From: a virus
DNA: 22,795 nt
Reading direction: 5' to 3' (one strand)
Virus record (IMG/VR): IMGVR_UViG_3300010348_001053
The notes under the pieces are model-generated. The model was not told the origin of the DNA and made no database searches. It saw only the letters and a program-made list of their open reading frames with translations. Both the position numbers and the translations under genes were made by a program. Below are positions 2,192-21,738 of this stretch, piece by piece (the first letter of the stretch is position 1; every line of letters begins with the position of its first letter).

Positions 2192-2204
2192 ATAAACGGG
2201 AAAA
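2192..2204 (-). promoter_or_regulatory. Viral promoter motif upstream of tape measure
   Basis: TTTTCCCGTTTAT; 31 nt from the motif G to ATG 2166. Confidence 0.7.
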
Positions 2205-2208
2205 GAGA

Positions 2209-2377
2209 TTAGCGGTTCTTACTCCGCTCCTTCTCCTGCCTCGTTGCCCGCTCGTCAAGTCCGGCAGAGACAAATATCCAGTCTTCATCAGTCAGCCCGG
2301 AGAGTTCGGACGGGGCACGCCCGCCCAGGAATTCACATACCGCTAAAAGCCACTGACCTTTATCTGTTTTTGCGAAA
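2209..2377 (-). CDS. Frameshift extension of the tail assembly chaperone (gpGT-like, predicted 202-aa fusion)
   Basis: The +1 frame is open from the TTT-CGC site (2377-2372) for 54 codons (AKTDKGQWLLAVCEFLGGRAPSELSGLTDEDW...KNR) to TAA at 2209. The ORF-track ATG at 2505 lies inside the chaperone gene and is unlikely to be real. Confidence 0.7.
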
Positions 2378-2818
2378 CCTGCGGACCTTCTCCTTATTCT
2401 TCTGAATCGCTTCCACCAGGTCTTCAAAGAAGACTGATGCCTTCCCGTCAGACTGCTTATCATACTTCTCCCAGAGCGACGGCTTGTTGTAGGGAGATTC
2501 TGCACACAGACCGGCTATGATGGCAAACAGTGGAGCCTTATCCTCATCCAGGGTGTCAGAAACATATTCGGGACCGTAATCCGCCCGTTCTTTCCGGTAC
2601 TCATGAATCTTCTCTTCAACGTGCCGGGGAATGGTCTTGAATACTTTGAACGAAAGACCCGCTATTGAAACCTGTATTGTGTTTTCCTGTTTTGCATGAG
2701 AGTTCAGGAGCATTCCGAGCACTTCATCTTCGTTCATCTCATGCTCTGCTTTGAACTTCTCAATCGTTTCAAAACCCTTATTGATGTCCCATTCTTTCTG
2801 GGGCGCCTCGTCGGTCAT
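2360..2818 (-). CDS. Tail assembly chaperone, short form (gpG-like, 152 aa)
   Basis: Position between tail tube genes and tape measure; helical acidic protein; overlapping downstream frame; promoter motif 33 nt upstream. Confidence 0.75.
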   Translation of the reverse strand: MTDEAPQKEWDINKGFETIEKFKAEHEMNEDEVLGMLLNSHAKQENTIQVSIAGLSFKVFKTIPRHVEEKIHEYRKERADYGPEYVSDTLDEDKAPLFAIIAGLCAESPYNKPSLWEKYDKQSDGKASVFFEDLVEAIQKNKEKVRRFRKNR

Positions 2819-2842
2819 ACGATAACCCGATTAGCGCAAAAA

Positions 2843-2859
2843 GAGATATACGGGAATTA
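2843..2859 (-). promoter_or_regulatory. Viral promoter motif upstream of tail chaperone
   Basis: TAATTCCCGTATATCTC; 33 nt to ATG 2818. Confidence 0.7.
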
Positions 2860-3165
2860 AGATTCGTCCGAAATCGGTTCTTCTTTCCCGGACACTTTGA
2901 CCGGATAACATTTCCCGGTACATCTGTACCGGTCCTCATCCCAGACATATTTCAGGAGAACTGGTTCATCCAGAGCCTTTACCGGCAGTTCTCCTTTCCG
3001 GTTCGTCCATTTCACTGATACGATACCATTCTTCTCTTCACGCCGTTCAAAGTTACAGTTCTTCGCCGGATAGAATTCTTTTTCGACTTTCTCACCGTCT
3101 TTAGGACCGGGGAGGGTGAACATACTCATGTCAAATTGAGACATGAACTCATACATGGATTTCAT
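2857..3165 (-). CDS. Hypothetical protein (102 aa), tail module
   Basis: GAGGT SD upstream of ATG; fills the gap between tail tube and chaperone; its stop codon is part of the next promoter motif. Confidence 0.7.
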   Translation of the reverse strand: MKSMYEFMSQFDMSMFTLPGPKDGEKVEKEFYPAKNCNFERREEKNGIVSVKWTNRKGELPVKALDEPVLLKYVWDEDRYRCTGKCYPVKVSGKEEPISDES

Positions 3166-3176
3166 AGAGATACCTC

Positions 3177-3182
3177 AAAAAA
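3177..3182 (-). terminator. Oligo-T (T6) terminator candidate after the second tail tube gene
   Basis: Minus strand reads TAA CCCC TTTTTT; archaeal intrinsic terminators are oligo-T tracts. Confidence 0.45.
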
Positions 3183-3186
3183 GGGG

Positions 3187-3699
3187 TTATACTGGGTTTG
3201 TAAACACGATATCCGCCGCGTGTGCGGTTGCATCGACAAACATCCATTCGTTTTCACGAACCTCGAACGGAAACCCGTCTAAATAACAATCTTCCGCTGT
3301 AGCGGTGATCTTTGCATAGGTTGTGGTTCCGGAGGTGTTAAACGGCTGGACGGTCCCGGCAATGTCAAAGAACGTCAGCTTACTGGTATCTGCGATAGAA
3401 CCGATATCTACAGCGGTACCGTTCTTATCCTCTCCATCGTCTCCACCGCCCCGGAGGGACTTGAACGCCCACCAGGTTCCGCCTGATACGGTTGGGTCAA
3501 TTGCTGCGTACTTCAGCTTGACCTCTACCTTCTGCCGGTATTTGGCTGTCGCCCGCATGAAGATAGAGTCAGATGAATACTTGTCATTTCGTTCCCATGA
3601 GATGTTAAAGTTCCAGCCTGAAACAGCGCCAATCTCAACTCCATCCGCTTGGATGGTTGCATCGGCACCTGCAAAGTATAATGATGATCCTGCTGCCAT
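3187..3699 (-). CDS. Tail tube (major tail) protein, paralog 2 (170 aa)
   Basis: Size and position; beta-rich pattern (EIGAVSGWNFNISW...PFEVRENEWMFVDAT); SD GAGGTG; clear paralog of 3711-4235. Confidence 0.75.
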   Translation of the reverse strand: MAAGSSLYFAGADATIQADGVEIGAVSGWNFNISWERNDKYSSDSIFMRATAKYRQKVEVKLKYAAIDPTVSGGTWWAFKSLRGGGDDGEDKNGTAVDIGSIADTSKLTFFDIAGTVQPFNTSGTTTYAKITATAEDCYLDGFPFEVRENEWMFVDATAHAADIVFTNPV

Positions 3700-3710
3700 T
3701 TTTTACCACC

Positions 3711-4235
3711 TCAAAACGTCGGCTCCGCGTTCACCGCGTCAAAGTGAGTAGCCACAAATCCGAGATCAACCGCGACCCATTCGTGCTCGCTTGCGCCGAA
3801 CGGCATTTGGTTAAACGAAGCGTTGTAAATCTTCGCTCCAAATATCGCGTTTGCATCGTCCTGAGGTGCGATAGATCCCCAGAGCATGAAGAACGTGAAC
3901 TTGCTGGTATCCGAGGTAGTACCTCCACCGGCAGAGTTCAGGATCTTCATCGCCCACCAGGTTCCGACGGTCGGATCAAACTTGGCAAAATTGAGTTTTC
4001 CTTCCGTCCGTGCTTTACATCGGGCCACCGCCAACCGCTTGATAGAGTCCATTGCATAGAGTTCTTTGTAATCGAACGTAGCTTTGAAACTCCATCCCGA
4101 AACGGCTGCGATCTTCGTGCCCGAAGCCCATGCCGGAGCGGTCTCGTTAGCGTCAGGATCCGGGTCGTAAAACCCGGTTTGAACCATGACGCCGACTTTG
4201 CTATCCGCCCCGGCAAAATAATAATCTACTGCCAT
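3711..4235 (-). CDS. Tail tube (major tail) protein, paralog 1 (174 aa)
   Basis: Shares YFAGAD, AVSGW, DSI, DPTV..TWWA, DTSK.TFF and PF...E.EW..VD with 3187-3699; promoter motif 32 nt upstream. Confidence 0.75.
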   Translation of the reverse strand: MAVDYYFAGADSKVGVMVQTGFYDPDPDANETAPAWASGTKIAAVSGWSFKATFDYKELYAMDSIKRLAVARCKARTEGKLNFAKFDPTVGTWWAMKILNSAGGGTTSDTSKFTFFMLWGSIAPQDDANAIFGAKIYNASFNQMPFGASEHEWVAVDLGFVATHFDAVNAEPTF

Positions 4236-4261
4236 TTACGGTTAAATGACAGTTGGAATAG

Positions 4262-4280
4262 ATAAACGGGAAATAAAAAA
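4262..4280 (-). promoter_or_regulatory. Viral promoter motif (with oligo-T) upstream of tail tube 1
   Basis: TTTTTTATTTCCCGTTTAT; 32 nt to ATG 4235. Confidence 0.75.
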
Positions 4281-4292
4281 GAAGAAATGATG

Positions 4293-4367
4293 TAACCTTA
4301 CCTTACCCAACCCCGCCATATCCAACCTCACCTGACCCCTCCTGTCCACACCCCTCCAAACCGGACC
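4293..4367 (-). ncRNA. GG(Y)-NN pentamer array, 15 units (candidate VIPR-type guide RNA)
   Basis: Minus strand: GGTCC GGTTT GGAGG GGTGT GGACA GGAGG GGTCA GGTGA GGTTG GATAT GGCGG GGTTG GGTAA GGTAA GGTTA. 14 of 15 units start GG and 11 of 15 start GGY, with the last two bases variable. Begins 15 nt after the stop of 4383-4767 and ends before a T-rich tract. The repeat is directly seen; the RNA function is inferred. Confidence 0.7.
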
Positions 4368-4382
4368 AGAACCCCGGCCGAT

Positions 4383-4767
4383 TCACATCAGACCGGTTTC
4401 ATGCAGTTTATTGAGTACTTCTTTAGCAGTAAATTTTTCTCCGAATCGGATAACCATCCATCCTTCTTTCCGGAGAATCATATCTCTGAATTGGTCACGT
4501 TTTTTTTGCTTTGGATGATGAATGCCAGTTGGTCCCATCGGTTTCAATGGCAATCTTGTTTGTGTGAGTGGTATCAAGATATATCGCGAAATCAATCACG
4601 AATCCTGACCGGGTAGATACCTGTTCCTGGAAATCGATATTGAGAGATGAGAGTATCTTACTCATCGCCTCTTCAAGACATGTCTTTGTTGATGTCTGAC
4701 CAATAGAGTTTGCCGCGTGCATCAAAAGTGGTTTGATCCCTTTCAGATGCACCGTCACAGGTTGCAG
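4383..4767 (-). pseudogene. RAMP/Vipr-like N-terminus fused to a DUF559/Vsr-like PD-(D/E)xK endonuclease, split by a frameshift in an A8 tract
   Basis: The 4495-4758 frame gives VTVHLKGIKPLLMH...EEAMSKIL...FQEQ...GFVIDFAI...KIAIETDGTNWH; the 4383-4595 frame continues KKRDQFRDMILRKEGWMVIRF. Removing one A from 4500-4507 joins them into about 124-127 aa. In-frame CTG at 4767 may be a mutated or alternative start (MQPVTVHLKG...). Confidence 0.75.
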
Positions 4768-4793
4768 TTATTCTGAAAGAATCTTTAGAATAA
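4768..4793. repeat. 26-bp imperfect palindrome
   Basis: TTATTCT-G-AAAG-AAT-CTTT-AGAATAA fills the entire gap between the tail terminator stop (4794) and the CTG at 4767. Confidence 0.7.
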
Positions 4794-5288
4794 TTACATG
4801 GTATGCATCGTAACCTGGAATCGAACCGACCAGACATGAAGGATATAATCTCTAACCTGATGATATCCGACCTCTAAAACCGGATTCACGCAGTATGCTT
4901 TAATAGATCGGGTTGTATCTACTTTCCCATCCTCATCAAAATAAATTCCAGATACGGCCTGATTTGAAACGGAAAACAAATCCACTACTGCATATCCGTA
5001 ATTCCGAGTTGTTCTGAGTAAATCAGGGACATTTGCACCTTTATACACTCCCGAAACAATTACACTAAACTCATGTTTTCGAGGAGTATTTGACATGTGT
5101 GTCGTTATTTTGTCTCCTCCTTCTAAAAGAGGAGTGATATAGAAACTTGGAAAAACCCGGATTCCTGCGGGCTGTTCGTCGCCTTCAATCATCCTCATCC
5201 CTGTAGTTCCTCCTAATAATGTGATATTAGTTTCAATCCGGCTTTTCATAGCATCTATGATTGAATTTACGTCTTCAGATGTTGGCAT
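4794..5288 (-). CDS. Probable tail terminator / tail completion protein (164 aa)
   Basis: Position after the neck genes; lambda gpU / SPP1 gp17-like pattern (N-terminal helix, P.F.I strand, C-terminal HVWSVRFQV strand); SD GGAGG. Confidence 0.55.
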   Translation of the reverse strand: MPTSEDVNSIIDAMKSRIETNITLLGGTTGMRMIEGDEQPAGIRVFPSFYITPLLEGGDKITTHMSNTPRKHEFSVIVSGVYKGANVPDLLRTTRNYGYAVVDLFSVSNQAVSGIYFDEDGKVDTTRSIKAYCVNPVLEVGYHQVRDYILHVWSVRFQVTMHTM

Positions 5289-5658
5289 GAACCCTCCGGA
5301 TACCTTTCTCTACGGCAGACGAGATGAAAGGATTCGGTTGCATCCCGCGTGATTTGACTACAAACACCCGTTCGCCTGCATCGTTCACCCAGGACAGTGC
5401 CTTTGCTTTCTTTGGCACGATCATTGTATGATAGGGACCATAGAGGCCGGTCCCCCGGATGATGAAAGGTAAGTAATTTGACTTGTTGGATATCAGCATC
5501 CCTTGAGGGACTTCCTCATCTATCCAGAGCGCCTTTGCTCTTCCGGGTGTAGCCTGCCGGAGTTCGTCTTTAATCTCATCCGCATATTTCTTGAGGATTC
5601 GTTTCTCAAACGATTTCAGGTCATGTGCCGGGAGTTTAAATGAGAGTTTTAATGCCAT
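5275..5658 (-). CDS. HK97 gp10-like neck/tail component (127 aa)
   Basis: YLPFIIRGTG...IVPKKAKAL...V.SRGMQPNPFISSAV pattern typical of this family; overlaps neighbours. Confidence 0.65.
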   Translation of the reverse strand: MALKLSFKLPAHDLKSFEKRILKKYADEIKDELRQATPGRAKALWIDEEVPQGMLISNKSNYLPFIIRGTGLYGPYHTMIVPKKAKALSWVNDAGERVFVVKSRGMQPNPFISSAVEKGIRRVHANI

Positions 5659-6350
5659 GCTTTTCCTCTCACCGTCCGCCGGTATGGTGCTAACCGTAAC
5701 TTCAGATCTTCGGTCATGATCTCTGGATGGAGCATGCTGATCATCTGTGCTATCGTCTGCGTTCCTGAATCAAACGAGGCAACAACGCCTTCCTGTTCGC
5801 GCTTTTTCTTCGCCAGAAAATTTGAGATGAGATCTAGACAAATAAACTTGATATCCGCCAGGACTGGTGAACCGGATGAATACCCAGCTGAGTACAGTAT
5901 CTTGACGTTCCCTTTCCCTGCCTGGGGAATAGTGTTGTGAAACACGATCCGGGTCACAAACCCGTCAGAGATGACCGCATAGTTCCCGGCCACACCAGTA
6001 TCCCGCATGGTCAGAGTAGTCCATAACGGAGCGGATGTCATAGAGGTATCGACTGATACCGATGTGATAGAAATGACCGGCTGTTCTCTCGGAATGAACG
6101 TCCGGTCAATCTCCCGGTAATACCTGCCTCGATCTCCAGTCGGTCCTCTTCCATCGTGATACTCGGTATAATTCGCTGCTTCAAACGACTGCCGGTTGCA
6201 GTACCGATTGATCATCTCCGTTGCTCCGGCAATAACCATCGTGATGTAGGTCGCCCACTGGTTTGATGTCATAAACGCATCAGCCTGTCTGAAATCGTTG
6301 TATGAGTATCCGGTATGAGCTTCTACTTCCTGCTGTGAACAGTATGCCAT
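5649..6350 (-). CDS. Head-tail adaptor/connector (HK97 gp6 / SPP1 gp15-like, 233 aa)
   Basis: YCSQQEV...IAGATEMINRYCNRQSF...EYHDG...PVISITSV...VKILYSAGY...DIKFICLDLI pattern; promoter motif 31 nt upstream. Confidence 0.75.
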   Translation of the reverse strand: MAYCSQQEVEAHTGYSYNDFRQADAFMTSNQWATYITMVIAGATEMINRYCNRQSFEAANYTEYHDGRGPTGDRGRYYREIDRTFIPREQPVISITSVSVDTSMTSAPLWTTLTMRDTGVAGNYAVISDGFVTRIVFHNTIPQAGKGNVKILYSAGYSSGSPVLADIKFICLDLISNFLAKKKREQEGVVASFDSGTQTIAQMISMLHPEIMTEDLKLRLAPYRRTVRGKAWH

Positions 6351-6375
6351 TCAGCACGGATTAGTTTCTGAATGA

Positions 6376-6394
6376 ATAAACGGGAAATAAAAAA
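6376..6394 (-). promoter_or_regulatory. Viral promoter motif upstream of head-tail adaptor
   Basis: TTTTTTATTTCCCGTTTAT; 31 nt to ATG 6350. Confidence 0.75.
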
Positions 6395-6401
6395 GTGAGA
6401 T

Positions 6402-6761
6402 TTAAGCTGCCTGGGTCACAAGTTTCCAGCCAGTGTTCTGAGTTGCGGTCCCTGCAAACACGTAAAGAGCACCGTTGGTGTAATCCACACAGAGATCTCC
6501 TTTCCGGTTGCCGGTAACGGCCGCCTCAGGAGTTCCTGCATTCGCTGACAGGGTTATTCCCTTCAGCGTGATTGCCCCGGTGGCAGTCAGGGCTGCCACG
6601 GTAGTCGCTCCGGTGACTCCCAGATTACCGCCGACGGTAGCGTTCCGGGTAATAGCAATGTCATCCGCCAGGGTGATCAGGTCTGAAAGAAACGTAATCT
6701 CCCGTGTAGCGGTTGCCGACCCGTCCGCGTTCTTCCGAAAAAGGTTATAGAAGAAGCTCAT
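6402..6761 (-). CDS. Probable head fibre / capsid decoration protein (119 aa)
   Basis: G/A/T-rich fibrous middle (ATVGGNLGVTGATTV) and C-terminal AGTP...GDLCVDYTNGALYV...GW motif seen in virion fibres; SD AGGTGA; follows MCP. Confidence 0.55.
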   Translation of the reverse strand: MSFFYNLFRKNADGSATATREITFLSDLITLADDIAITRNATVGGNLGVTGATTVAALTATGAITLKGITLSANAGTPEAAVTGNRKGDLCVDYTNGALYVFAGTATQNTGWKLVTQAA

Positions 6762-6767
6762 CTTCTA

Positions 6768-7280: not shown

Positions 7281-7291
7281 TTTTTCTTACC

Positions 7292-8584
7292 TCACACAGT
7301 GATACCGAACACGCCACCCTGGAGAGAACTGGTTCCGTCAACATCAGACTTGTCGATCAAAGTCTCAGCGAATGAGATAGTAAACCGCTTGGTCGGGTTG
7401 GTGCTTGGTGCAAGTTCAGTGAATACCTCAGGATAGAGGACACGGTACTTGAGATAGTTCAGGTCCAGAAGGAAGAAAGACCCATTTGCTCCGGTCGTGG
7501 TCGGAAGGTAGATAGATGGAACTACCGGCACCTTACCGGATCCGGGGAGATTGATGGTGATGTTCTCAATACCGTAATCCTGGTCAGACTTCTGCTGATA
7601 CCGGATGTATTCCTCCATACCAATCGTGATGATATTGTAGGTGGAATAGTCACAGATTGCGACGTTTGGCACAAGACCGTCCTGCATCATCTTCCGGTTT
7701 GAGTCCTTGATGAGCGGCTTGAGTTCGTCCCAGGTATCGACACCTGCATCTGCGGTCTCGTAGTTAGGGTCGTCAGTGTTGTTGTGGATGAGCTCGTAGA
7801 GACCGGGGTACTCATACTGACCGGCCGGAGTGAATGCCGGGTCTGCGGTATATGTAGAGGTGACACCGAGGGTTCTTCGTTCCCTGAGCTGCTTGAGCAT
7901 TTCAGTGTGAGCGAGAAGCTCGATAGACATCAGGTCACGGGCCGGCACCTGGGCCATGCCTGCGTACTGTGCAAACTGAGTTACCGCTGCGGTGGTCCAT
8001 GCGATCTTGATATCTGCGGTTCGCCGCTTTGGATCCATGTCGGATTCGACAAGGTTCGGTGATTCAGGACCGAATGAAGCGCTACCTGCTCCACCCGCCG
8101 GGATAGCATCCCAGAGAGCGACTGCACCGGGATTTGGTTCTTTGCCGATGAGAGCCTGGACCGGGAGCGGACGCATGAACAGACTGGTGATCTGCTGGTC
8201 GTAGATGGAATGCATCAGGTTTGAGCTGGAGTCTGCTGCCTTCTTGATCTCGTCTTCAGATACTCCTACCTTTGAGAGTGATGCTTTCCGAATCTCGTTC
8301 AGACCGTCAACATACTTCACCTTGGCGGCTTCGATGTCGTTGGTAAACCCGCTCATAGAGTATCCCGGATTCAGGATAGCCTTCTTGATAAGGTTCGGAT
8401 CAATTGCATCTACCACAACGCCTGATACAGCGGTCTGAAGTCCGTTTGCCTGTGCCTGTGCAATGGACTGAGCCATTGACTTCTTGATCTCGTAGAGATT
8501 GACGTCAGTCTGTGCATTGCCAAGGTTACCCCAGAATGCCTGACCGAGAGCCACATCTTCTTTAGTTGCGTGTCTTCCTGCCAT
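7292..8584 (-). CDS. Major capsid protein precursor (HK97 fold expected; 430 aa from the preferred start)
   Basis: Follows the prohead protease; size; GLYELI and GKVPVVPSIYLP-type motifs; GGAGG SD favours ATG at 8584 over 8596; N-terminal ~116 aa helical with four IxK[AS] motifs (probable propeptide). Confidence 0.85.
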   Translation of the reverse strand: MAGRHATKEDVALGQAFWGNLGNAQTDVNLYEIKKSMAQSIAQAQANGLQTAVSGVVVDAIDPNLIKKAILNPGYSMSGFTNDIEAAKVKYVDGLNEIRKASLSKVGVSEDEIKKAADSSSNLMHSIYDQQITSLFMRPLPVQALIGKEPNPGAVALWDAIPAGGAGSASFGPESPNLVESDMDPKRRTADIKIAWTTAAVTQFAQYAGMAQVPARDLMSIELLAHTEMLKQLRERRTLGVTSTYTADPAFTPAGQYEYPGLYELIHNNTDDPNYETADAGVDTWDELKPLIKDSNRKMMQDGLVPNVAICDYSTYNIITIGMEEYIRYQQKSDQDYGIENITINLPGSGKVPVVPSIYLPTTTGANGSFFLLDLNYLKYRVLYPEVFTELAPSTNPTKRFTISFAETLIDKSDVDGTSSLQGGVFGITV

Positions 8585-8595
8585 AGTTTCCTCCA

Positions 8596-9828
8596 TCAGA
8601 ACTGACCGGCCATGAGTAGTGCCGGGTTCGTGTCACCGGACGGAGATTCCGGAGTTTTTGCCTTCTGTACAATATCTTCAGACTTGACAAGGGTCTGATC
8701 CACGATGACCTTCCGGTCCCTGGGTTTCGTCTCTTCAAGTTCCAGAACCGCTTTCCGGAGAATGTCGTTATCTTCCCGGAGCTGCTGGATGGTATCATTG
8801 AGTTCTGGAATTGAGGCTATTGCTTTGCGGATCTCTTCAGGGAGGTCTGGGAACGCTTTCTTGATTGCACATCCCTTTTCTACCTCTTCCTCTTCAGGAT
8901 CCTCATCATCCTCATATCCGTCATCAGGATACTCTTCTTCCTCATCCTCAAGCTCTGCTTTCTGGACTTCATCGCCGCCGCCCATCTGGTCCTTAAGCTC
9001 CTGGAGCTCCTGGAGGACCATTGTCAGCCCTTCGGCAATTGTGGATACCTGATCCTGGATATCGGGACCATTATCCTCATATTCCGCATCGCCGTAATCC
9101 TCATCGGCCTTCTCGATATCATCCGGCTCGACGCTGGTCATTTCCTCAACAGCCTGTTCGAGTGCGGACAATCTCTCTGATAGAGAGGTAAGGGCACCTA
9201 CAACCTGCTGTTCAAAGTCATTTCCAGTAGGAGCGGATTCGGCTGGTGCGTCTGTAGTATCAACCATGTCGATTTTCTCCATACTACCGTCTGCCGTTTC
9301 ATGAACGGGGGCAGAATCGGAATTCATAGATTTTACAACGATGCCCTTCACGATTTCAACAAAAGTGGACGGATTTATGGCATTACCCGCCGGACACACG
9401 GATATTGAGTCTAAATGCAATTTTAATGTCTTACATGGCTCATTCCGTCTATCCGGATGAATTTTGCAGGACTTTGATCCTTCGACTCGTCGCCCATAGA
9501 TACTGTACTGAGCCAGTTCACCGGACTTGATCCGGGACCAGACATCATCACAATCATCTGTATTTTTGATAGTTCCCTGAATCATCAGGGCACCATCCGG
9601 GTTCATAGTCGCGGACGTGACAAGACCGATGGGTCGTTCTGTGTGGTCCAAATGCAATACCGGTAATGCCATGAAGTTATCAAGTGCGTCTGCTACTGCA
9701 GATGACAAGACCAGTTCATTTTCCCGGTCCACCTGCGGGATAGAGGCACAACCTCTGATTACCCGCTGGTCTCCTTCCTCCGCCCAGGATAAATCCATTG
9801 TGAGGATAGGAGTCTCGAAATCAGACAT
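8596..9828 (-). CDS. Prohead (maturation) protease, HK97/S78-like, with acidic scaffold-like C-terminal extension (410 aa)
   Basis: RVIRGCAS...DRENE...LHLDH...PIG...YSIYG...ISVCP..AINP with candidate catalytic His and Ser; D/E-rich C-terminal half; promoter motif 33 nt upstream. Confidence 0.9.
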   Translation of the reverse strand: MSDFETPILTMDLSWAEEGDQRVIRGCASIPQVDRENELVLSSAVADALDNFMALPVLHLDHTERPIGLVTSATMNPDGALMIQGTIKNTDDCDDVWSRIKSGELAQYSIYGRRVEGSKSCKIHPDRRNEPCKTLKLHLDSISVCPAGNAINPSTFVEIVKGIVVKSMNSDSAPVHETADGSMEKIDMVDTTDAPAESAPTGNDFEQQVVGALTSLSERLSALEQAVEEMTSVEPDDIEKADEDYGDAEYEDNGPDIQDQVSTIAEGLTMVLQELQELKDQMGGGDEVQKAELEDEEEEYPDDGYEDDEDPEEEEVEKGCAIKKAFPDLPEEIRKAIASIPELNDTIQQLREDNDILRKAVLELEETKPRDRKVIVDQTLVKSEDIVQKAKTPESPSGDTNPALLMAGQF

Positions 9829-9855
9829 CTGCCAACGAGATTCGAGTCAGAGTAA

Positions 9856-9872
9856 ATAAACGGGAAATAAAA
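9856..9872 (-). promoter_or_regulatory. Viral promoter motif upstream of the protease-capsid operon
   Basis: TTTTATTTCCCGTTTAT; 33 nt to ATG 9828. Confidence 0.75.
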
Positions 9873-9879
9873 TAACTAC

Positions 9880-9887
9880 AAAAAAAA
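9880..9887 (-). terminator. Oligo-T (T8) terminator candidate
   Basis: Minus strand TAA TTTTTTTT immediately upstream of the protease promoter. Confidence 0.5.
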
Positions 9888-9985
9888 TTAGATTTTGCGA
9901 GTGAACAGATACTTCAGCCGGGTTTTAAAATCAGCCTTCCGTGCCCGGATACCAGTCTCATACATCCGCAAGGAGACCTCCGGTT

Positions 9986-10393
9986 TCAACCGGGGGAGAA
10001 ATTGCGGTCTTGTTCCTGAATATATCGTTGAATTGTGTCAGATGACACGTTGCCTGCTGTACCCACATAATAACTTGGATTCCAAATAGATCCTTTCCTA
10101 AACATCGTTCTTAATTCAGGATATACAGAATACAGTCGTTTAGCAGAAACACCTTTTAAAATCTTGATAACTCCTGTAGGACTTTCGTATGGAGGAGTTG
10201 AAAGAAACAGATGGATATGGTCTGGCATAATCTTGAGTTCGAGAATATCCCAGTTTTTAGTTAGACATATTGTTCTAATAGTTTTCTCCAGTTCTTCTGC
10301 TATATGTTGAATTAAAATCTGTTTCCGGTATTTCGGACACCATACAAAATGATAATTGATCAGATATACAGCAGACGAGATTTTCTTTTCCAT
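9986..10393 (-). CDS. tnpA: IS200-type Y1 HUH transposase (135 aa)
   Basis: YHFVWCPKYR, HUH motif DHIHL, catalytic Tyr in IQRYIQEQ. Confidence 0.95.
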   Translation of the reverse strand: MEKKISSAVYLINYHFVWCPKYRKQILIQHIAEELEKTIRTICLTKNWDILELKIMPDHIHLFLSTPPYESPTGVIKILKGVSAKRLYSVYPELRTMFRKGSIWNPSYYVGTAGNVSSDTIQRYIQEQDRNFSPG

Positions 10394-10432
10394 ACCATAA
10401 GGTATTTGTTTTTGTAGAACATATGATTATGC

Positions 10433-11509
10433 ATGCAGAGATCAGTAACGATCTGGATCCCGAAATCAGACGATTTAGTGGATACTATCGTTCAGTATAA
10501 CTCTGCATGTAACGATTGTTTGAAATGGGGATTTGGAAATAAGACTTATAACAAGTCGAAAATTCACAAAGCAACATACGAAGATATTAGAACCAGATAT
10601 CCAGATCTCCAATCTTCTTTAGTATGTGCTGCAAGAGATCAAGCAGCAGATATGCTAAAGCGGGAAAAACTCAAACGGTTTCCGAAAAAGAAGACATTTT
10701 CAGGCATTCGATATAACGCTCGTACAATATCTGTATCTGCAGATGGATCAAAAGTATCTCTCTCAACTATTGCAGGAAGATACAGATTTGATCTGAATAT
10801 CCCCAAATATTTTCAGAAGTATGGAACAGGAAAACTCTGTGCAGCAACCATGTCTTGTCAGAACGATAAGATTAAACTGGTCCTGAATTTCGAGTTTAAT
10901 CCGATTCAGAAATGTGAAAATTCAAAAGTATTGGGGATAGATAGAGGAATCATTAATCCGGTTGTTACTTCCGATAACGGTTTTTTTAACTCGAAAAAAC
11001 TTCGATCAGTGAAAGGAAGATATCAGTACCAGAGAAGGAAACTTCAACAGAAAGGCACTCGATCTGCAAAACGAAGATTAAAACAGATCTCGCAGAAAGA
11101 GACTCGGTTTGTAACTGATATGAATCACTGTATAAGCAAACAGATCGCAGATTCCGATTTTGGAATATTTGTTCTTGAGAAACTGGAAATAAAACGATCC
11201 AAGAAAGTGGGGAAGAAGTTCAATCGCAAACTGGGTAACTGGTCGTTTGCTCAATTCTCAAAATTGCTTGAGTATAAAGCAGAAGATAGGGGTAAGATCG
11301 TAATCTATATAGATCCAAGATACACTTCTCAAAAATGTTCAGTTTGTGGAAACACTGAAAAATCTAACCGAAAAGGATCAAAATTTATCTGTAAAAAATG
11401 TCAGTTTTCTCTTAATGCCGATCTGAATGCTGCTAGAAACATTGCTCAATTGGGTATATCTCAAATGAGTAGGCTGCTTGTCAACCAGCCAACCGTAGCG
11501 TCCTGTTAA
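10433..11509 (+). CDS. tnpB: RNA-guided endonuclease TnpB (358 aa)
   Basis: RuvC residues GIDRG / VLEKL / NADLNAARNI; zinc finger CSVC...CKKC. Confidence 0.95.
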   Translation: MQRSVTIWIPKSDDLVDTIVQYNSACNDCLKWGFGNKTYNKSKIHKATYEDIRTRYPDLQSSLVCAARDQAADMLKREKLKRFPKKKTFSGIRYNARTISVSADGSKVSLSTIAGRYRFDLNIPKYFQKYGTGKLCAATMSCQNDKIKLVLNFEFNPIQKCENSKVLGIDRGIINPVVTSDNGFFNSKKLRSVKGRYQYQRRKLQQKGTRSAKRRLKQISQKETRFVTDMNHCISKQIADSDFGIFVLEKLEIKRSKKVGKKFNRKLGNWSFAQFSKLLEYKAEDRGKIVIYIDPRYTSQKCSVCGNTEKSNRKGSKFICKKCQFSLNADLNAARNIAQLGISQMSRLLVNQPTVASC

Positions 11510-12562: not shown

Positions 12563-12589
12563 CTACCGGAGTATTTGGTGTGAAATGAA

Positions 12590-12603
12590 ATAAACGGGAA
12601 TTA
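12590..12603 (-). promoter_or_regulatory. Viral promoter motif upstream of the Cys-rich peptide/gp7-like operon
   Basis: TAATTCCCGTTTAT; 33 nt to ATG 12562. Confidence 0.7.
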
Positions 12604-13103: not shown

Positions 13104-13124
13104 ACAAAAGAATAGGGGTTGTGT

Positions 13125-13142
13125 GATATTATACGGGAATTA
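13125..13142 (-). promoter_or_regulatory. Viral promoter motif upstream of the 65-aa ORF
   Basis: TAATTCCCGTATAATATC; 31 nt to ATG 13103. Confidence 0.7.
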
Positions 13143-13727: not shown

Positions 13728-13746
13728 CCATAATAATAATGGGTAT

Positions 13747-13766
13747 GAGATATTATACGGGAATTA
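13747..13766 (-). promoter_or_regulatory. Viral promoter motif upstream of the methyltransferase
   Basis: TAATTCCCGTATAATATCTC; 31 nt to ATG 13727. Confidence 0.7.
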
Positions 13767-13790
13767 CGCTGCCGCAGTTGCTGACGAATT

Positions 13791-16331: not shown

Positions 16332-16356
16332 ACCGGTGAAAGAGTGATGAAGTGAG

Positions 16357-16373
16357 ATAAACGGGAAATAAAA
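16357..16373 (-). promoter_or_regulatory. Viral promoter motif upstream of the 846-aa gene
   Basis: TTTTATTTCCCGTTTAT; 31 nt to ATG 16331. Confidence 0.75.
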
Positions 16374-16379
16374 GGAGGG

Positions 16380-16643: not shown

Positions 16644-16648
16644 GAAAA

Positions 16649-17557
16649 TTAGTTTAAGGTCTTCTGACCTTTCACCGGGTTCTTCTTCTTGAGATATTCG
16701 ATAACGTCGGGTTTCCACCGGGGAGCATAATTTGTCCGTGAACCTTTGCCGGATGTGATAGTGATCGCTTCCATCTCACCATATTTCTCGCCAAGGACCG
16801 TGAGACCCCATTCCCTTCCTATCTTGATGAGTAATCCGTTTTCTGCCATGAACTGATTTGATACTTTGGAGTGCTTGCCAAACTTTTCAGCAATTGCAGT
16901 CGATGAGTAGAGGACACCTCTGGTCTTTGCTGGAAGTGCCGGGACACATTCCTTGTATGTTGACAGATCCTCTCCGGTCTTCTTCTCAGTCATCTCAATG
17001 GCTTTGAGTGTCGCGGTCCGCTTGTCAAGTCCGATACTCCTGCCTGCTGATAGGTAATCTTTCAGGACCGGTGATATCGGAGTGAATGATTTTACATCCA
17101 TGCTCTTCCGGGACCGTGGCTTCTTCCCTGCCGGAAGTGCCAGGGTGCCGTTCTTGTATTCGGTGAAGATATGGGCCATCTCATCTTTCCGCTTCTCAAT
17201 GGCTGCAGCGATCTTCCGGTCTTTCATTCCGGATGTATCAACCTCCATGATTGCACGGTTGAATCCTTTTTCAGAGAGTAAATAATACCCAGGTGCATTG
17301 TGCAATACCGGCATTGACAGACTGTCAAACCCAGAGAAAATCGAAGCGATCTCGCCACGAGTTACATAAAAATAATCCGATGCATTCAAGCGTTTTATCA
17401 CTCTGCTTGCGTGATCAGCTACCATCTCAAGATTCTGATATACATGGGTCCAGAGCATGTACGGTTTCCCATTAATCACGAAACCGAGACCCTTCGGTTC
17501 TCCTTTCACATCGAAAGAGAACACATCCAATGTTTTAATACGGGTTGTGTCAAACAT
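16649..17557 (-). CDS. Antirepressor-like DNA-binding protein (Bro-N-like N-terminus, KilA-C/ANT-like C-terminus, 302 aa)
   Basis: N-terminal FVINGKPY...YYLLSEKGFNRAI; C-terminal YSSTAIAEKFG...NQFMAENGLL...WGLTVLGEKYG...RW. Confidence 0.65.
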   Translation of the reverse strand: MFDTTRIKTLDVFSFDVKGEPKGLGFVINGKPYMLWTHVYQNLEMVADHASRVIKRLNASDYFYVTRGEIASIFSGFDSLSMPVLHNAPGYYLLSEKGFNRAIMEVDTSGMKDRKIAAAIEKRKDEMAHIFTEYKNGTLALPAGKKPRSRKSMDVKSFTPISPVLKDYLSAGRSIGLDKRTATLKAIEMTEKKTGEDLSTYKECVPALPAKTRGVLYSSTAIAEKFGKHSKVSNQFMAENGLLIKIGREWGLTVLGEKYGEMEAITITSGKGSRTNYAPRWKPDVIEYLKKKNPVKGQKTLN

Positions 17558-17564
17558 AGTATTG

Positions 17565-17735
17565 TTACTCCACTTGGGGAAGACTCTTCCCTGATTTTTT
17601 TACATCTTCAATCAGGTAATGCTCCAGCATCTCTGAAAGATTGATACTTTCATCCAATGCATATTGCCGGAGGTCACACCGGAGAAAAAGCGTAACTTTT
17701 TTTCGTGGACCTCCTCCTTTTACTGGTCTTCCCAC
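17565..17735 (-). CDS. Ribbon-helix-helix / CcdA-like small DNA-binding protein (56 aa, GTG start; below ORF-track cut-off)
   Basis: MGRPVKGGGPRKKVTLFLRCDLRQYALDESINLSEMLEHYLIEDVKKSGKSLPQVE; alternating strand KVTLFL then two helices with INLS; promoter motif 30 nt upstream; stop 7 nt before the antirepressor start. Confidence 0.75.
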   Translation of the reverse strand: MGRPVKGGGPRKKVTLFLRCDLRQYALDESINLSEMLEHYLIEDVKKSGKSLPQVE

Positions 17736-17753
17736 AATATTCAATTCGCGTGG

Positions 17754-17773
17754 GAGATATTATACAGGAATTA
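17754..17773 (-). promoter_or_regulatory. Viral promoter motif upstream of the RHH gene
   Basis: TAATTCCTGTATAATATCTC; 30 nt to GTG 17735. Confidence 0.7.
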
Positions 17774-18007
17774 CAACCGTACAAAATACGGTCTAAATTT
17801 TCCCTATGTGAAAACAATAGTTGGGTAAATCAGATCTCACATCAACTCCGGAACGAACCGGCCACCGGAGATCCTAGTCAGATAGCTAATGAGAAAACTA
17901 CTCTGAAAAGCCGGGTGGTGGAGCATAGGAGAAGAAGAGAGAATAGTTAACAACAATGCCTGAAAGAGAGGTCTCTGCTGGCATACAGGATGATGATTGT
18001 AATAGGT

Positions 18008-18020
18008 ATTAAACGGGAAT
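18008..18020 (-). promoter_or_regulatory. Viral promoter-like motif upstream of an apparently non-coding or micro-ORF segment
   Basis: ATTCCCGTTTAAT; 30 nt to an ATG at 17984 (28-aa ORF). Confidence 0.5.
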
Positions 18021-18043
18021 CCGGTCCCCGTCTCACGAAGAGA

Positions 18044-19247
18044 ATCAATAACCAACAACTAAACCGTTGGCTTGCACTTCAAATTCTCTTTCGAGCAGAG
18101 TGCTATAGGCTGATTGACAACAGCCCTTTGAGCAATGTTTTTAGCAGCATTAATGTCAGCATTTTCAGTATGTCCACATTCCAAACATACAAATTCAGAT
18201 TGGGATTTGCGGTTATTCTTATCGATATATCCACAAACGGAACACTGCCTAGACGTGTTTTGTGGATCAACCAGATGAACAAGAACTCCTGCTAATTTAG
18301 ACTTATACTGGATGAACTGACTTAACTCTCCAAATGCCCATTTTGAATGTTCTTCACGCTGCTCCTTTCTAACAGTTACTTTGTCCCTGATCCCTGAAAG
18401 GTCTTCTATAGCAATAGATGACAAAGTGCCTTTCGCAAGTTGAACAACATTCTTTGAGACACAATGATTCTGGTCTTTTTTGAATCTCCGTTCTCTTTTG
18501 GATAGTTTCTTGAGATGTTTCTTAGCATCCCAAGTTCCTACTGATTGAAGTTTCCCTTTGATCTTCTGATACTTTCTGCGAACCTTTTTACACAGATCTC
18601 CTGAAAATACCTGACCTTCAGAAGTTGTTGCAAGGTTCACAATTCCCAGATCAATTCCAATTACCTTGTCTGAATTAATTGGTTCATCTTCTGGAACATC
18701 GCAGACGATCAGAAGATAAAACTGTTTGTCACGATAAACTAAATCTACCTGACCTTTTACACGTTCAAGATCTAATTCTCTGTAATTACCACAGACGAAG
18801 TTAATCTTCTCCCGTTTCTCAAGAGTCAGGATAGATACGATATCCATTGATTTGAAGGTTAGGTTCCTCTGATCGTATTGAATTGCTCCATGAGGGTTGA
18901 ACTCATGTTGAACCTTTTTATCAACCTTATACGATTCAGAAACCTTCCCTATGGCTCTGACAACCATCTGGGCAGATAACCCAAACTTTTCCTTCACATC
19001 GTAATAAACAAGTTTATGTAATCCTATCTTACCAAATGTTCTGAACTCAAAAGCAACTTCTGAAATATAATTGCAAGATGCGTTGTATTGTTCCATCGTT
19101 TTAAGCAAAATCGCCCTTTGCTCATCATTAGGAACTAACTTCAACTGCAATGTCAGAAGCATATATTGATCTATGTATTCAATACAGATAATACTTATGC
19201 AGCATTCCTCCTACCCCTAAAAGAGTGGGCCTCCTGCTGCAATTATC
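18044..19247 (-). mobile_element. IS200/IS605-family element, tnpB-only (IS1341-like), non-autonomous
   Basis: Left end GCAGCAG-GAGG-CCCACTC-TTTTAG-GGGTAGG...TGCTGC; guide GAGG predicts target TCxC, matched by TCAC at 19251-19248. Right end CAAG-CCAACGGTTTAGTTGTTGG-TTA-TTGAT. Confidence 0.88.
18059..19162 (-). CDS. tnpB: RNA-guided endonuclease TnpB (367 aa)
   Basis: N-terminal HTH (LKLVPNDEQ...L), RuvC GIDLG / IAIEDL / NADINAAKNI, zinc finger CSVC...CLEC. Confidence 0.95.
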   Translation of the reverse strand: MLLTLQLKLVPNDEQRAILLKTMEQYNASCNYISEVAFEFRTFGKIGLHKLVYYDVKEKFGLSAQMVVRAIGKVSESYKVDKKVQHEFNPHGAIQYDQRNLTFKSMDIVSILTLEKREKINFVCGNYRELDLERVKGQVDLVYRDKQFYLLIVCDVPEDEPINSDKVIGIDLGIVNLATTSEGQVFSGDLCKKVRRKYQKIKGKLQSVGTWDAKKHLKKLSKRERRFKKDQNHCVSKNVVQLAKGTLSSIAIEDLSGIRDKVTVRKEQREEHSKWAFGELSQFIQYKSKLAGVLVHLVDPQNTSRQCSVCGYIDKNNRKSQSEFVCLECGHTENADINAAKNIAQRAVVNQPIALCSKENLKCKPTV

Positions 19248-19402
19248 GTGAACAAACCATAGGTCAAGGCTAAAGGAACAGATTGTGAGTCAGGGTGAAC
19301 AACTCCCTGACCCGGTGAACACATGAGCAATGAAATTTCCAGATGGGAGATAGGTAGGATCATCGTCTTACGACTCCCCTACCATCCTATAGGTTGACGT
19401 GT

Positions 19403-19422
19403 GAGATAATATACAGGAATTA
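19403..19422 (-). promoter_or_regulatory. Viral promoter motif upstream of a structured non-coding segment
   Basis: TAATTCCTGTATATTATCTC; nearest ATG (19385) gives only a 5-aa ORF. Confidence 0.6.
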
Positions 19423-20064
19423 CGTGTCGAGTTTTCCATAGATTTTGTGACATCCCATTGCCATGTATTCAAGGCATGCTTCATCATCTCCGCGGACTTC
19501 GCACCGTTCCTGCGCCTGGATACACTGATAATGATCGGCTCGTTGTTTTACTTCTTTCTTGTCCTTCTGCCGGTATGAATATCCTAACTGCTGTGCAACA
19601 TTCGCCCTATTCTCCCGGTAGTTCAGGGTCTTGTCTATCAGGGATGATACATCGTATGATTCCGGGTCAAGTCCGGCATTGACCATATCCTGTTTAATGC
19701 GTAACTCAGTGAGTGAATGGGCGGAAGTTTTGGTCTTTGCCCGCTGTTTCTTCACCGATGCTTCTTTCTTCTCCGGATAATACCACTCGTCACCGGCCTG
19801 GAGAATTGTATTCAGTGTCGATTCATACATCCCCTGGTTCTCCATGTCATATCCCGGTTGTTTCTGGATCTGGTTTCGTCTCCGGGTGATAGCACGTTTG
19901 AACGAATCGATTGATTTAGACCGGTTGAGCGTGCTTTCCATGTCATCAAGAGCTCTGGTAACGTCTGCTTTTTGTTCATCAGATAGTTTGCTGACGTTCG
20001 GATGGTTGATCGTGAAATCCCGGAGCCTGGATAAAGAGGGTTTATCCTGGTCCGGGGACTTCAG
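19420..20064 (-). CDS. 214-aa -1 frameshift extension of 20061-21695 (ORF track shows only 173 aa from an internal Met)
   Basis: The frame of 19420-19941 is open upstream through the slippery site: LKSPDQDKPSLSRLRDFTINHPNVSKLSDEQKADVTRALDDMESTL...; no SD or promoter motif before 19941. Confidence 0.75.
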   Translation of the reverse strand: MKSPDQDKPSLSRLRDFTINHPNVSKLSDEQKADVTRALDDMESTLNRSKSIDSFKRAITRRRNQIQKQPGYDMENQGMYESTLNTILQAGDEWYYPEKKEASVKKQRAKTKTSAHSLTELRIKQDMVNAGLDPESYDVSSLIDKTLNYRENRANVAQQLGYSYRQKDKKEVKQRADHYQCIQAQERCEVRGDDEACLEYMAMGCHKIYGKLDT

Positions 20065-20070
20065 TTTTTT
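20013..20070 (-). promoter_or_regulatory. -1 ribosomal frameshift signal: A_AAA_AAC heptamer plus 51-nt stem-loop
   Basis: Heptamer at 20070-20064 in the correct phase immediately before TGA; hairpin TGAAGTCCCCGGA-CC-A-GGATAAA-CCCTC-TTTATCC-A-GG-C-TCCGGGATTTCA at 20063-20013. Confidence 0.75.
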
Positions 20071-21695
20071 GTGTCTAACCGGTTCTGACTTAGTCGGTCC
20101 TGCCGGGTCTTCTTCTCGGCTATCTCTTTGATCTTCTGCCGGGTATCCACACCGAATTCAGCGACTGACTCTTTTGCTTTCTTCTTCTCGGTCTGACCTA
20201 ACCCGGTTGCAATCTTCTTCTGGTCCGGGTCGTGGCGTTTGTCGCCAGCTAATTCAGGATACTGTTTTGCTATCTCTTTTTGCTTCGTCTCTTCTTTCTC
20301 TGGAAGGTCATATGAAAGTTCATACCAGTAATCCGTTGAATTGCCACTATCAGGGTTTCCTCCCCGAATCTGTTTTTCAAGTTTAACATTCCGATAACCA
20401 TCAGCCTCTAATCTTTTTGCATAGATATGTGCTTCAAGTTGAGAGAAATTCTTCAACCGTTCTTTCTTCCGTTCCCCGGATGATGCTTGTTTGTCACCGG
20501 AGGAGAACGGTTTGTCTTCAGTCCCTGGTGTGCTGATTGTTCTGACATGCCCTAAATCACCTTGTTTATTCACCTGTTCCAGCACGTCTACATATTTTCC
20601 ATGCTCGATTGATAACCGGTTAACGTTCTGTTCTAATTTACTTGCAGGGACCGTTTCACCGGTACTGGTAAGGTATGAGTCTCCTGATCGTGCAAATACT
20701 AACCGGTCAATATTCTTCTCCTTGTTACTTGCAATGTGCTTATCTATTGCTTGCTGTGCTGCCGGGGATGAGGGTTTTGTTTTCTGCTCATTCATCTTGT
20801 CAGAGACACCCTGAATTATTGCATCGCTCCCTTTCTCCTTCCGCTCTGTGGCTAACCTGATTGCTTCTGCCTTTGCTTCAGTCTTATTGAATAATTGTTT
20901 TCCTCTTGAACCCCTTCTTATACCCTCTCTTATTTTTATATCATAGACTAAAGTCTCATTTGTATCCGGATCAGTGACCTCCACCCGCTGAAACTCATTA
21001 CCGCTCCATCCGATAGTATATCGTATCCCCAACTTTGCGGTTAATCCGGGCTGCTGTGTTTTCGTTTCCTTCTGTCTCCGGACCGTTGCTTTCTGGTCCT
21101 TTACCTGACTGACCGGTTTCTCTTCAGGGACTTTTATCCGTAGTTTCGTCTTGCGTTCTGGTTGATGCTCTGGATACTCTTCCGGATGAGTTACTTCTTT
21201 CCATGCCTGTATTGTGGATTTCTTTTCCGGGGTTGTAGAAGTCTTCTCTTTCTTCTCCCCGCCTTTGAATCCTGCCACCATCCGCTTCAGTTCTTTGATA
21301 TCCGTGTGCTTCCCCAGGAATTTTACATCGCCATCTTTCCCCTCAAAGGTCAGATGATGTTCTCCATCCTTTGACTCTATCCGATATGCACCGGGACCGT
21401 GTTCTCCCTCCTTCGTCCGATGCATGACTGAACCATCCTCCTGTTTCCGGAACGCCGGTAGTCGCTTCTTCTTCTCCCCACTCTCTTCTTCCTTCTTCGG
21501 AGCCTCTTTCTTCTTTGACTCCTTAACTGCCTTTAAATCTTCAGTGTTGTAATACATCCCCTTCCGTGGTCCGGTATGGATCTGAACTCCTGCCGGGGGT
21601 TTCTGACCTGGTTTCAGATACTTCTTTGCTTTGCTGATAACCGATGACCGTGCTGATATATCCCTGAGCTTGAGCAACATCAGATAGTGACTCAT
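20061..21695 (-). CDS. K/E-rich putative virion-internal protein (544 aa short form; 758 aa with frameshift)
   Basis: Preferred start MSHYLMLLKLR at 21695 (promoter motif 31 nt upstream; parallels MSYYLTLLKLR of the neighbour). The ORF-track start at 21857 lies inside the previous gene. Confidence 0.8.
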   Translation of the reverse strand: MSHYLMLLKLRDISARSSVISKAKKYLKPGQKPPAGVQIHTGPRKGMYYNTEDLKAVKESKKKEAPKKEEESGEKKKRLPAFRKQEDGSVMHRTKEGEHGPGAYRIESKDGEHHLTFEGKDGDVKFLGKHTDIKELKRMVAGFKGGEKKEKTSTTPEKKSTIQAWKEVTHPEEYPEHQPERKTKLRIKVPEEKPVSQVKDQKATVRRQKETKTQQPGLTAKLGIRYTIGWSGNEFQRVEVTDPDTNETLVYDIKIREGIRRGSRGKQLFNKTEAKAEAIRLATERKEKGSDAIIQGVSDKMNEQKTKPSSPAAQQAIDKHIASNKEKNIDRLVFARSGDSYLTSTGETVPASKLEQNVNRLSIEHGKYVDVLEQVNKQGDLGHVRTISTPGTEDKPFSSGDKQASSGERKKERLKNFSQLEAHIYAKRLEADGYRNVKLEKQIRGGNPDSGNSTDYWYELSYDLPEKEETKQKEIAKQYPELAGDKRHDPDQKKIATGLGQTEKKKAKESVAEFGVDTRQKIKEIAEKKTRQDRLSQNRLDTKN

Positions 21696-21720
21696 ACCAG
21701 AGAAAAAGAGATGCGATAAG

Positions 21721-21738
21721 ATAAACGGGAAATAAAAA
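21721..21738 (-). promoter_or_regulatory. Viral promoter motif upstream of the 544/758-aa gene
   Basis: TTTTTATTTCCCGTTTAT; 31 nt to ATG 21695. Confidence 0.75.

Follow-up and report, generated by a model that had tools for sequence, protein, structure and literature searches.

TTCC(C/T)G in place of the B recognition element at predicted leaderless promoters of a tailed archaeal virus

The window analysed here, the whole 22,795-bp metagenome contig of IMG/VR virus record IMGVR_UViG_3300010348_001053, holds the late region of a tailed archaeal virus in which the recognition element for transcription factor B (BRE), which fixes transcription factor B (TFB) binding and promoter polarity, is replaced by the pyrimidine-rich sequence TTCC(C/T)G fused to a TATA box. 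The pattern TTCCYGTWTAW matched 13 times in the window against 0.13 matches expected and a maximum of 1 in shuffled sequences, and all 13 lay on the minus strand, the carrier of nearly all genes, as a sequence-only reading of this DNA had reported; bare TTCCYG occurred 55 times versus 31 expected. In about 40 copies, counting the window and the relatives described below, the hexamer directly abuts the TATA box with zero spacer and in a single orientation, occupying the BRE position with T-T-C-C-Y-G at −6 to −1. The bases favoured by TFB are G at −6 and A at −3 (PMC11065993, citing Qureshi and Jackson 1998). Every copy instead has T at −6 with C at −3, and none carries the G or A at −6 and the A at −3 of an archaeal core promoter, so the earlier claim that the BRE had given way to a pyrimidine-rich element was borne out; the element is invariant and runs contrary to the preference of TFB.

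Predicted leaderless promoters in the window

In ten of the 13 copies an ATG lies 30–32 nt past the motif G and opens an open reading frame (ORF) of 46–846 aa. Eleven starts at 30–33 nt had been claimed; the ten ATG starts stand, and the eleventh, 17735, is a GTG at +29 and doubtful. The TWTAW box itself begins 30–32 nt before the ATG in the same ten copies, in agreement with the proposal of archaeal-type TATA promoters at leaderless spacing. Likewise upheld was the division between first genes lacking a Shine-Dalgarno sequence and operon-internal genes possessing one: a Shine-Dalgarno match of at least 5 bases was found at 0 of the 10 ATG-start genes led by the motif, versus eight motif-less genes with an anti-Shine-Dalgarno match of at least 5 bases (including those with starts at 3165, 3699, 5288, 5658, 6761, 7280 and 22473). 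Many internal genes carry GAGGT(G), AGGTGAT, GGAGG or GGTGA 4–10 nt upstream.

In their TATA half, their spacing and their Shine-Dalgarno pattern the viral promoters agree with leaderless promoters of the host, and on these sequence features host RNA polymerase and TATA-binding protein (TBP) almost certainly act here. Because the host-type TATA box, T[T/A]TA[T/A], lies 30–32 nt before the start codon, polymerase and TBP would initiate at or beside the AUG. This would leave the first cistron without a leader, with the internal ones relying on their Shine-Dalgarno sequences. The motif also predicts gene starts, as had been suggested: it favours 21695 over the start of a longer ORF from 21857, and the former is backed by an orthologue in a relative that starts exactly 30 nt after its own motif.

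Two promoter subtypes had been described, and this is roughly right. TTTTAT-TTCCCG-TTTAT(C/T)T stands before head, tail and large-protein genes, and (C)GTAA-TTCC(C/T)G-TATA(A/T)TATC before small or accessory units; the intermediate forms at 12590–12600 and 2846–2856 blur the split. Runs of 5–8 T lie directly upstream of the structural-gene subtype (2203–2227, 4273–4285, 6387–6400, 9867–9890 and 21732–21740) and probably act as oligo-T terminators of the preceding transcript, making terminator-promoter cassettes. T-runs are likewise present upstream of this subtype in the close relative G001.

Since such T-runs directly precede many copies, termination probably occurs there, and this might suggest that the repeat is not a promoter but a terminator, or an RNA processing, packaging or recombination site lying between genes. 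We consider this very improbable. The distance to the start codon is fixed, half of the motif is TATA-like, and it is exactly the genes behind it that lack a Shine-Dalgarno sequence; moreover, the spacing equals the TATA-to-ATG peak of a host's own promoters (see below), copies also precede a non-coding unit, and bacterial σ70-like −35/−10 sites occur in the window at chance level (32 versus 29.0 ± 5.7 in shuffles).

Relatives, host and the distribution of the element

The close relative G001, an IMG/VR contig of 75 kb that is ~75% complete and whose capsid protein is 75% identical to that of the window, carries 19 motif copies; every one of them is on the gene strand, the opposite strand has none, and a reversed control pattern had 0 matches. 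An ATG at 29–32 nt opens at least 57 codons behind 15 of the 19. The window virus also has capsid relatives at 82–96% identity, and contigs of these viruses come from digester and landfill samples. A capsid profile search recovered 80 metagenome loci and 8 viral loci. The exact motif was kept before the protease-capsid operon in L080, L082 and L083 (45–49% capsid identity) and was absent from most relatives at ≤44% capsid identity. Across six lineages spanning 35–75% capsid identity, only TTTTAW-TTCCCG-TTTAW and the 30–32-nt spacing were kept before this operon, the rest of the sequence having diverged. Looser C-rich versions (CACCCG-TATATAA, ATTCCCC-TATAAT, GCCCC-TATATAA) occupy the same place in some distant relatives and in the provirus of genome G658, and pyrimidines in the BRE position may characterise the virus family more widely. 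C-rich sequences preceding TATA at leaderless spacing were seen at L089, L091, L092, L093 and L160 and, in the G658 provirus (Methanomicrobiales), at about G658:C1 2093400–2094700. Scans of a viral collection with two long forms of the motif returned only the one relative, plus single chance matches.

The viral MCM is closest to a cellular MCM group at 40–44% identity that includes Methanoregulaceae and Methanocalculus, other phylum matches reaching 35–39%, and the capsid profile found five proviruses among 351 Methanomicrobiales genomes. Because the MCM is closest there and the order holds these five proviruses with related capsids, Methanomicrobiales is the most likely host order on sequence grounds. 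We regard the virus as one of methanogenic archaea; Methanothrix as its host found no support, the MCM and the proviruses favouring Methanomicrobiales. A haloarchaeal host was ruled out, many window proteins having an isoelectric point above 9 and not being acidic, as was a bacterial host, given σ70-like sites at chance, a relative with an archaeal MCM and related proviruses in Methanomicrobiales.

The distribution of the element on a host chromosome was examined in G238, a 2.8-Mb Methanolinea-like genome (Methanoregulaceae; MCM 86% identical to that of Methanolinea mesophila). It contains a 42-kb provirus with a capsid protein 35% identical to that of the window, with a thermosome gene next to one end and genes of ordinary metabolism next to the other. 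Five good motif copies with an ATG at ~30 nt lie on the gene strand of the provirus, one of them before the protease gene, and all five promoter-context copies of the genome are inside it. The rest of the genome has 32 plain motif matches versus 15 for a control pattern; when 28 chromosomal matches were inspected, 24 fell in long open frames and 4 were intergenic, and none of the 4 had an ATG at 29–33 nt. The chromosomal matches thus appear to be chance hits, mostly inside coding frames. One intergenic copy, G238:C10:254443–254453 (L290), reads TTCCCG-TTTATGTAG, shares its first 15 bases with the provirus protease promoter and is followed by an ATG at +28; a second viral element may have left it behind. 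Three copies on contig C15, 240 nt apart, were set aside as parts of a 240-nt tandem repeat without promoter context.

Host promoters were characterised from TATA-like boxes lying 26–50 nt before predicted starts in 400 kb of the G238 chromosome. Among 109 such sites, −6 was A or G in 76, −3 was A in 50, and TTCCYG occurred in 0; the TATA boxes peaked at −32 to −29 from the start codons and were of the same types as in the viral promoters. G238 host promoters therefore carry the canonical purine-rich BRE signature. Promoters at leaderless spacing were then sorted into a C-rich type and a canonical-like type (R at −6, A at −3). The 400 kb of host sequence, both strands, gave 14 C-rich and 54 canonical-like promoters. 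On the gene and opposite strands, respectively, the C-rich type numbered 11 and 0 in the window, 17 and 0 in G001, and 5 and 0 in the G238 provirus; the corresponding canonical-like counts were 1 and 2, 4 and 10, and 2 and 1.

Wider scans, in genome sets that are samples and not whole clades, gave the same picture. No enrichment was seen in 401 genomes drawn evenly from Halobacteriota, the densest having ~21 copies per Mb versus 570 per Mb in the window, and in the five genomes that ranked highest by count or by motif-to-control ratio, ATG spacing was seen at just 5–10% of copies, which is the chance level. Among the 351 Methanomicrobiales genomes, motifs with ATG spacing numbered at most 7 per genome; the maximum was in G238, where 5 of the 7 came from the provirus. 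A site recurring in ~11 small Methanomicrobiales genomes proved to be no promoter; it encodes the N-terminus of a protein on the opposite strand that looks like an aminotransferase. With no promoter use in the G238 chromosome or in ~750 sampled genomes, the description of the motif as virus-specific was confirmed, and in no genome searched was it as common before host genes as before viral ones.

According to a current preprint, archaeal viruses are believed to depend on promoter elements like those of their hosts, since none encodes an RNA polymerase (bioRxiv 10.64898/2026.09.13.751334). Against this expectation, the BRE is replaced throughout one virus, and host genes make no use of the sequence that takes its place. 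The viral promoters resemble the canonical archaeal core promoter of methanogens, Sulfolobus and haloarchaea in having TATA at a fixed distance, a predicted start at the AUG, a leaderless first cistron and internal Shine-Dalgarno sequences; they differ in a BRE position that is not purine-rich, is invariant and is found only in viruses. Many promoters of Sulfolobales viruses (SIRV2, SSVs; PMC11065993) also share a long conserved sequence around TATA, but they keep a canonical strong BRE that is also present on highly expressed host genes, whereas here the BRE is replaced and no host gene carries the element. Literature searches with the motif strings gave no relevant match and no paper holding the motif, and we found no publication describing an archaeal virus that has a BRE-position element of its own. 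The layout of archaeal TATA promoters is known; the replacement at the BRE position is new, solid as an observation and unproven as to mechanism.

The proposed reader of the element

The promoter had been proposed to serve late genes. In two relatives it does lead genes of the middle and late phases and does not occur in the early operons, but it is not late-only, as it also leads nucleotide-metabolism genes and a non-coding unit. No exact motif was found in the early operons of G001 or of the G238 provirus. The G001 early region (7.7–15.9 kb) encodes small proteins, MCM and other products, its first gene is led by a Shine-Dalgarno sequence, and its sole copy, which stands ahead of the gene for thymidylate synthase, is a degenerate TTCCCC-TATAT. 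The early block of the G238 provirus precedes the first motif copy there. The G001 early operon begins at an AT-rich divergent region with palindromes. This control region, G001:7262–7760 (L067), with palindromes such as TGTTGTGTATACAACA, has on one side a 115-aa zinc-ribbon protein encoded on the opposite strand and on the other the Shine-Dalgarno-led early operon, and looks like a lysis-lysogeny switch.

The sequence-only reading had implied a viral TFB-like or activator protein. A six-frame search of the 75-kb G001 returned no match to the TFIIB cyclin (PF00382) or TBP (PF00352) profiles, both of which matched positive controls, and Pfam searches of 44 further G001 ORFs found no TFB or TBP domain, so the TFB-like version of the idea found no support in this ~75% complete relative. 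Small winged-helix proteins are encoded in the early operons of both viruses: in G001, a winged-helix-like protein (L067:12886–13110) has weak MarR/TrmB matches and is followed by two ORFs (72 and 76 aa) without a Pfam match, the three together spanning L067:12886–13552, and the early block of the G238 provirus encodes, at L181:8024–8320 on the minus strand, a small winged-helix-like protein of 98 aa. G238 has one TFB gene and two TBP genes, which ruled out an alternative host TFB paralogue in that genome.

On balance, we consider it somewhat more likely than not that the hexamer is a virus-specific core-promoter element in the BRE position that is read by a putative early viral DNA-binding factor. 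Its rigid position, lack of a spacer and single orientation point to a core promoter element contacting the basal complex, and an early viral DNA-binding protein would be the most economical reader because the host has a single TFB and canonical promoters and no host gene carries the element. Such a protein would read TTCC(C/T)G in place of the BRE and would recruit or reprogramme the host TFB/TBP complex at these BRE-less promoters; the small winged-helix proteins of the early operons are candidates for the role. Once made, the factor would switch on the middle and late genes, which would be silent in the lysogen until then. More tentatively, and with rather less assurance than we attach to the reading as a whole, the factor might take over BRE recognition, either by binding TTCCYG and docking TFB/TBP or by remodelling the host's single TFB. 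The proposed redirection of host polymerase, if it follows early expression, is in keeping with a motif missing early and present in middle and late regions of two relatives.

Several points weigh against a viral reader. The transcription starts are predictions from the TATA-ATG spacing. We infer the existence and viral origin of the factor, and the winged-helix proteins are only candidates; those of G001 and the G238 provirus have no detectable similarity to each other. BLASTP and phmmer comparisons of the two viruses found no shared early regulator except DUF1064, which at 49% identity is the only early protein they have in common; Pfam lists its function as unknown, it has no relative of solved structure, and it cannot readily be taken for a transcription factor. 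The site, asymmetric and of 6 bp, is short for specific recognition by a DNA-binding protein. With G001 ~75% complete, a factor gene could sit in the missing part. Finally, the host control rests on a provirus whose capsid is 35% identical to that of the window virus, whose own host is placed only to the level of order.

Phage T4 middle promoters offer a parallel from bacteria. There, a MotA box replaces the −35 element, and AsiA and MotA bring about 'sigma appropriation'. As in the window, the host's proximal element is kept and the upstream element is swapped for a virus box, which in T4 is read by an early viral protein that times middle and late transcription; unlike the window, T4 uses a bacterial σ70 system, and the remodelling of TFB considered here is hypothetical. 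We know of no archaeal counterpart of T4 sigma appropriation. If a viral factor does take over BRE recognition, this would be one, and in the hexamer archaea would have their first known core promoter element specific to a virus. The silence of more than 20 promoters in a provirus would then be accounted for without a repressor at each. A viral protein reading the hexamer would also represent a new way to redirect an archaeal, eukaryote-like pre-initiation complex and would give a compact orthogonal promoter-factor pair for methanogen genetics.

Within archaea, activator-dependent promoters with a weak BRE include those of TFB-RF1 of Pyrococcus and Ptr2 of Methanocaldococcus. A further activator, EarA, rescues the weak BRE of the fla promoter in Methanococcus maripaludis (PMC5512572). 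The viral copies likewise have a weak, non-consensus BRE, and EarA-type promoters (PMC5512572) combine a poor BRE with a sequence-specific recruiter of TFB/TBP, a mechanism that for the virus is only inferred. They differ from the viral promoters in being served by host activators, whose sites lie upstream of a BRE that can still be recognised and are limited to one operon or a few. In the virus the specific element takes the BRE's own place, and does so at more than 20 promoters.

TTCCYG could instead be the operator of a virus-encoded repressor, laid over the BRE position. In the lysogen the repressor would exclude TFB from each of the promoters, and on induction a strong TATA alone would fire through host TBP and TFB. 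A model is provided by the stoperators of mycobacteriophage L5, which are 13 bp long, scattered without fixed relation to promoter elements, and block elongation; they too are many short asymmetric sites in one orientation in a temperate phage, but here the site is fused to the TATA box. The viruses are temperate, with integrases in G001 and in the G238 provirus, the latter integrated and presumably silent, and restriction of the element to viruses would suit a repressor operator equally well. Archaeal viral repressor sites overlapping the BRE have also been proposed (PMC11065993). Nevertheless, we regard an operator as unlikely. The site is a single asymmetric 6-mer with no palindrome or tandem repeat, while palindromes do occur at the G001 early switch region; the rigid zero-spacer position in ~40 copies is what core promoter elements, unlike operators, typically show; and the element is absent from early promoters, the usual place of immunity repressors. 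T at −6 and C at −3 would, in addition, make basal TFB binding poor unaided.

Host machinery might also read the element with no viral factor, through a single TFB that tolerates or prefers it in some state or through a host regulator, the sequence being shared among the viruses by descent or by convergence for strong or conditional expression. Archaeal viruses are not known to supply basal factors of their own (bioRxiv 10.64898/2026.09.13.751334), we could find no viral regulator shared by G001 and the G238 provirus, and the looser C-rich forms of related viruses, such as GCCCC-TATATAA, might be weak BREs. Such a host factor would, however, be one without host targets: 0 chromosomal promoters of G238 have the element, the 351 Methanomicrobiales genomes showed no promoter use, and G238 has one TFB and a canonical purine BRE at its own promoters. 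Persistence of an invariant TTCCYG down to 35% capsid identity also argues for specific recognition and not merely for a weak BRE, and we hold a host-only explanation to be quite unlikely.

Individual copies and gene content of the contig

The 13 copies and the units behind them are listed in Table 1. Besides correcting gene starts (21695), the motif marks transcription units and a candidate non-coding RNA, and can flag related viruses and proviruses in metagenomes.

Table 1. Copies of the TTCC(C/T)G-TATA promoter in the window; distances are counted from the motif G.
Position	Strand	Sequence form	Start codon (distance)	Unit behind the copy
2192–2202	−	TTCCCG+TTTAT	ATG 2166 (+30)	tape-measure gene, 1–2166
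2846–2856	−	TAA-TTCCCG-TATAT	ATG 2818 (+32)	152-aa gene
4262–4272	−	after T6 run	ATG 4235 (+31)	operon of two 170–174-aa genes
6376–6386	−	after T6 run	ATG 6350 (+30)	head-tail adaptor operon; orthologous copy G001:53918
9856–9866	−		ATG 9828 (+32)	protease/scaffold and major capsid protein operon
12590–12600	−	subtype hybrid, CGTAA + TTTAT	ATG 12562 (+32)	46-aa then 297-aa gene
13129–13139	−	CGTAA-TTCCCG-TATAATATC	ATG 13103 (+30)	65-aa then 101-aa gene
13753–13763	−	CGTAA-TTCCCG-TATAATATCTC	ATG 13727 (+30)	195-aa gene
16357–16367	−		ATG 16331 (+30)	846-aa protein; orthologue G001:44902 with identical promoter
17760–17770	−	TGTAA-TTCCTG-TATAATATCTC	no ATG at normal spacing; only GTG 17735 (+29)	
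18009–18019	−	TTCCCG+TTTAA	ATG (+29)	28 codons only (remnant)
19409–19419	−	CGTAA-TTCCTG-TATATTATCTC		5-codon ORF only
21721–21731	−		ATG 21695 (+30)	544-aa protein

After the operon start behind copy 4262–4272, the next genes, which start at 3699 and 3165, show GAGGT(G) as their Shine-Dalgarno sequence. The copy before the protease/scaffold and capsid genes has orthologues at G001:50376, in L080, L082 and L083, and in the G238 provirus. Copy 17760–17770 may produce a leadered transcript for a 302-aa gene, which has GGAG ahead of its start at 17557. Copy 18009–18019 lies just downstream of an inserted TnpB gene (18059–19162), and its orthologue, G001:43458, leads a 222-aa gene. A ~220-nt stretch running from copy 19409–19419 to the next promoter is conserved and intact in G001:43234–43468 (L001:1591–1825); the unit itself occupies G001:43234–43457, and its window counterpart is split by the same TnpB-only insertion sequence. 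Copy 19409–19419 is a candidate for a small non-coding RNA's own promoter.

Pfam and PHROGs searches assigned an SU10-type HK97 major capsid protein (7292–8596), a protease/scaffold (8596–9828), a head-tail adaptor (5649–6350) and a tape-measure protein (1–2166) to the window. The capsid protein had no match in a phage database and no close relative in GTDB contigs. Two IS200/IS605 insertions are present, one with TnpA (9986–10393) and TnpB (10433–11509) and one with a lone TnpB (18059–19162); both are low in GC (36–39%) within a virus of 46–50% GC. The lone TnpB is 88–90% identical to metagenome proteins only and 60–63% identical to TnpB of Methanosarcina, Methanolobus, Methanoculleus and Methanocalculus, and thus points to methanogens, if only broadly. 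Relatives of TnpA are scattered among DPANN archaea, Hadarchaeota, haloarchaea and bacteria.

In addition to its archaeal-type MCM helicase, G001 encodes a ribonucleotide reductase with an intein, thymidylate synthase, dCTP deaminase, an integrase, a reverse transcriptase, the large terminase and two tRNAs. The intein has a LAGLIDADG domain, and the reverse transcriptase adjoins the integrase. The tRNA genes lie at 23120–23192 and 23474–23539 (L068:3120–3192 and 3474–3539), one being tRNA-Ala(TGC).

Large and otherwise unrelated proteins of these viruses, most of them products of first genes behind the motif, begin alike, with M-S/G-x-Y/W-L-x-L-L-K/R-L-R-D/E-I-S.... Such N-termini were seen at window starts 21695, 22473 and 16331 and in at least seven proteins of G001 (starts 16989, 35511, 37751, 41638, 43499, 44517 and 44938).

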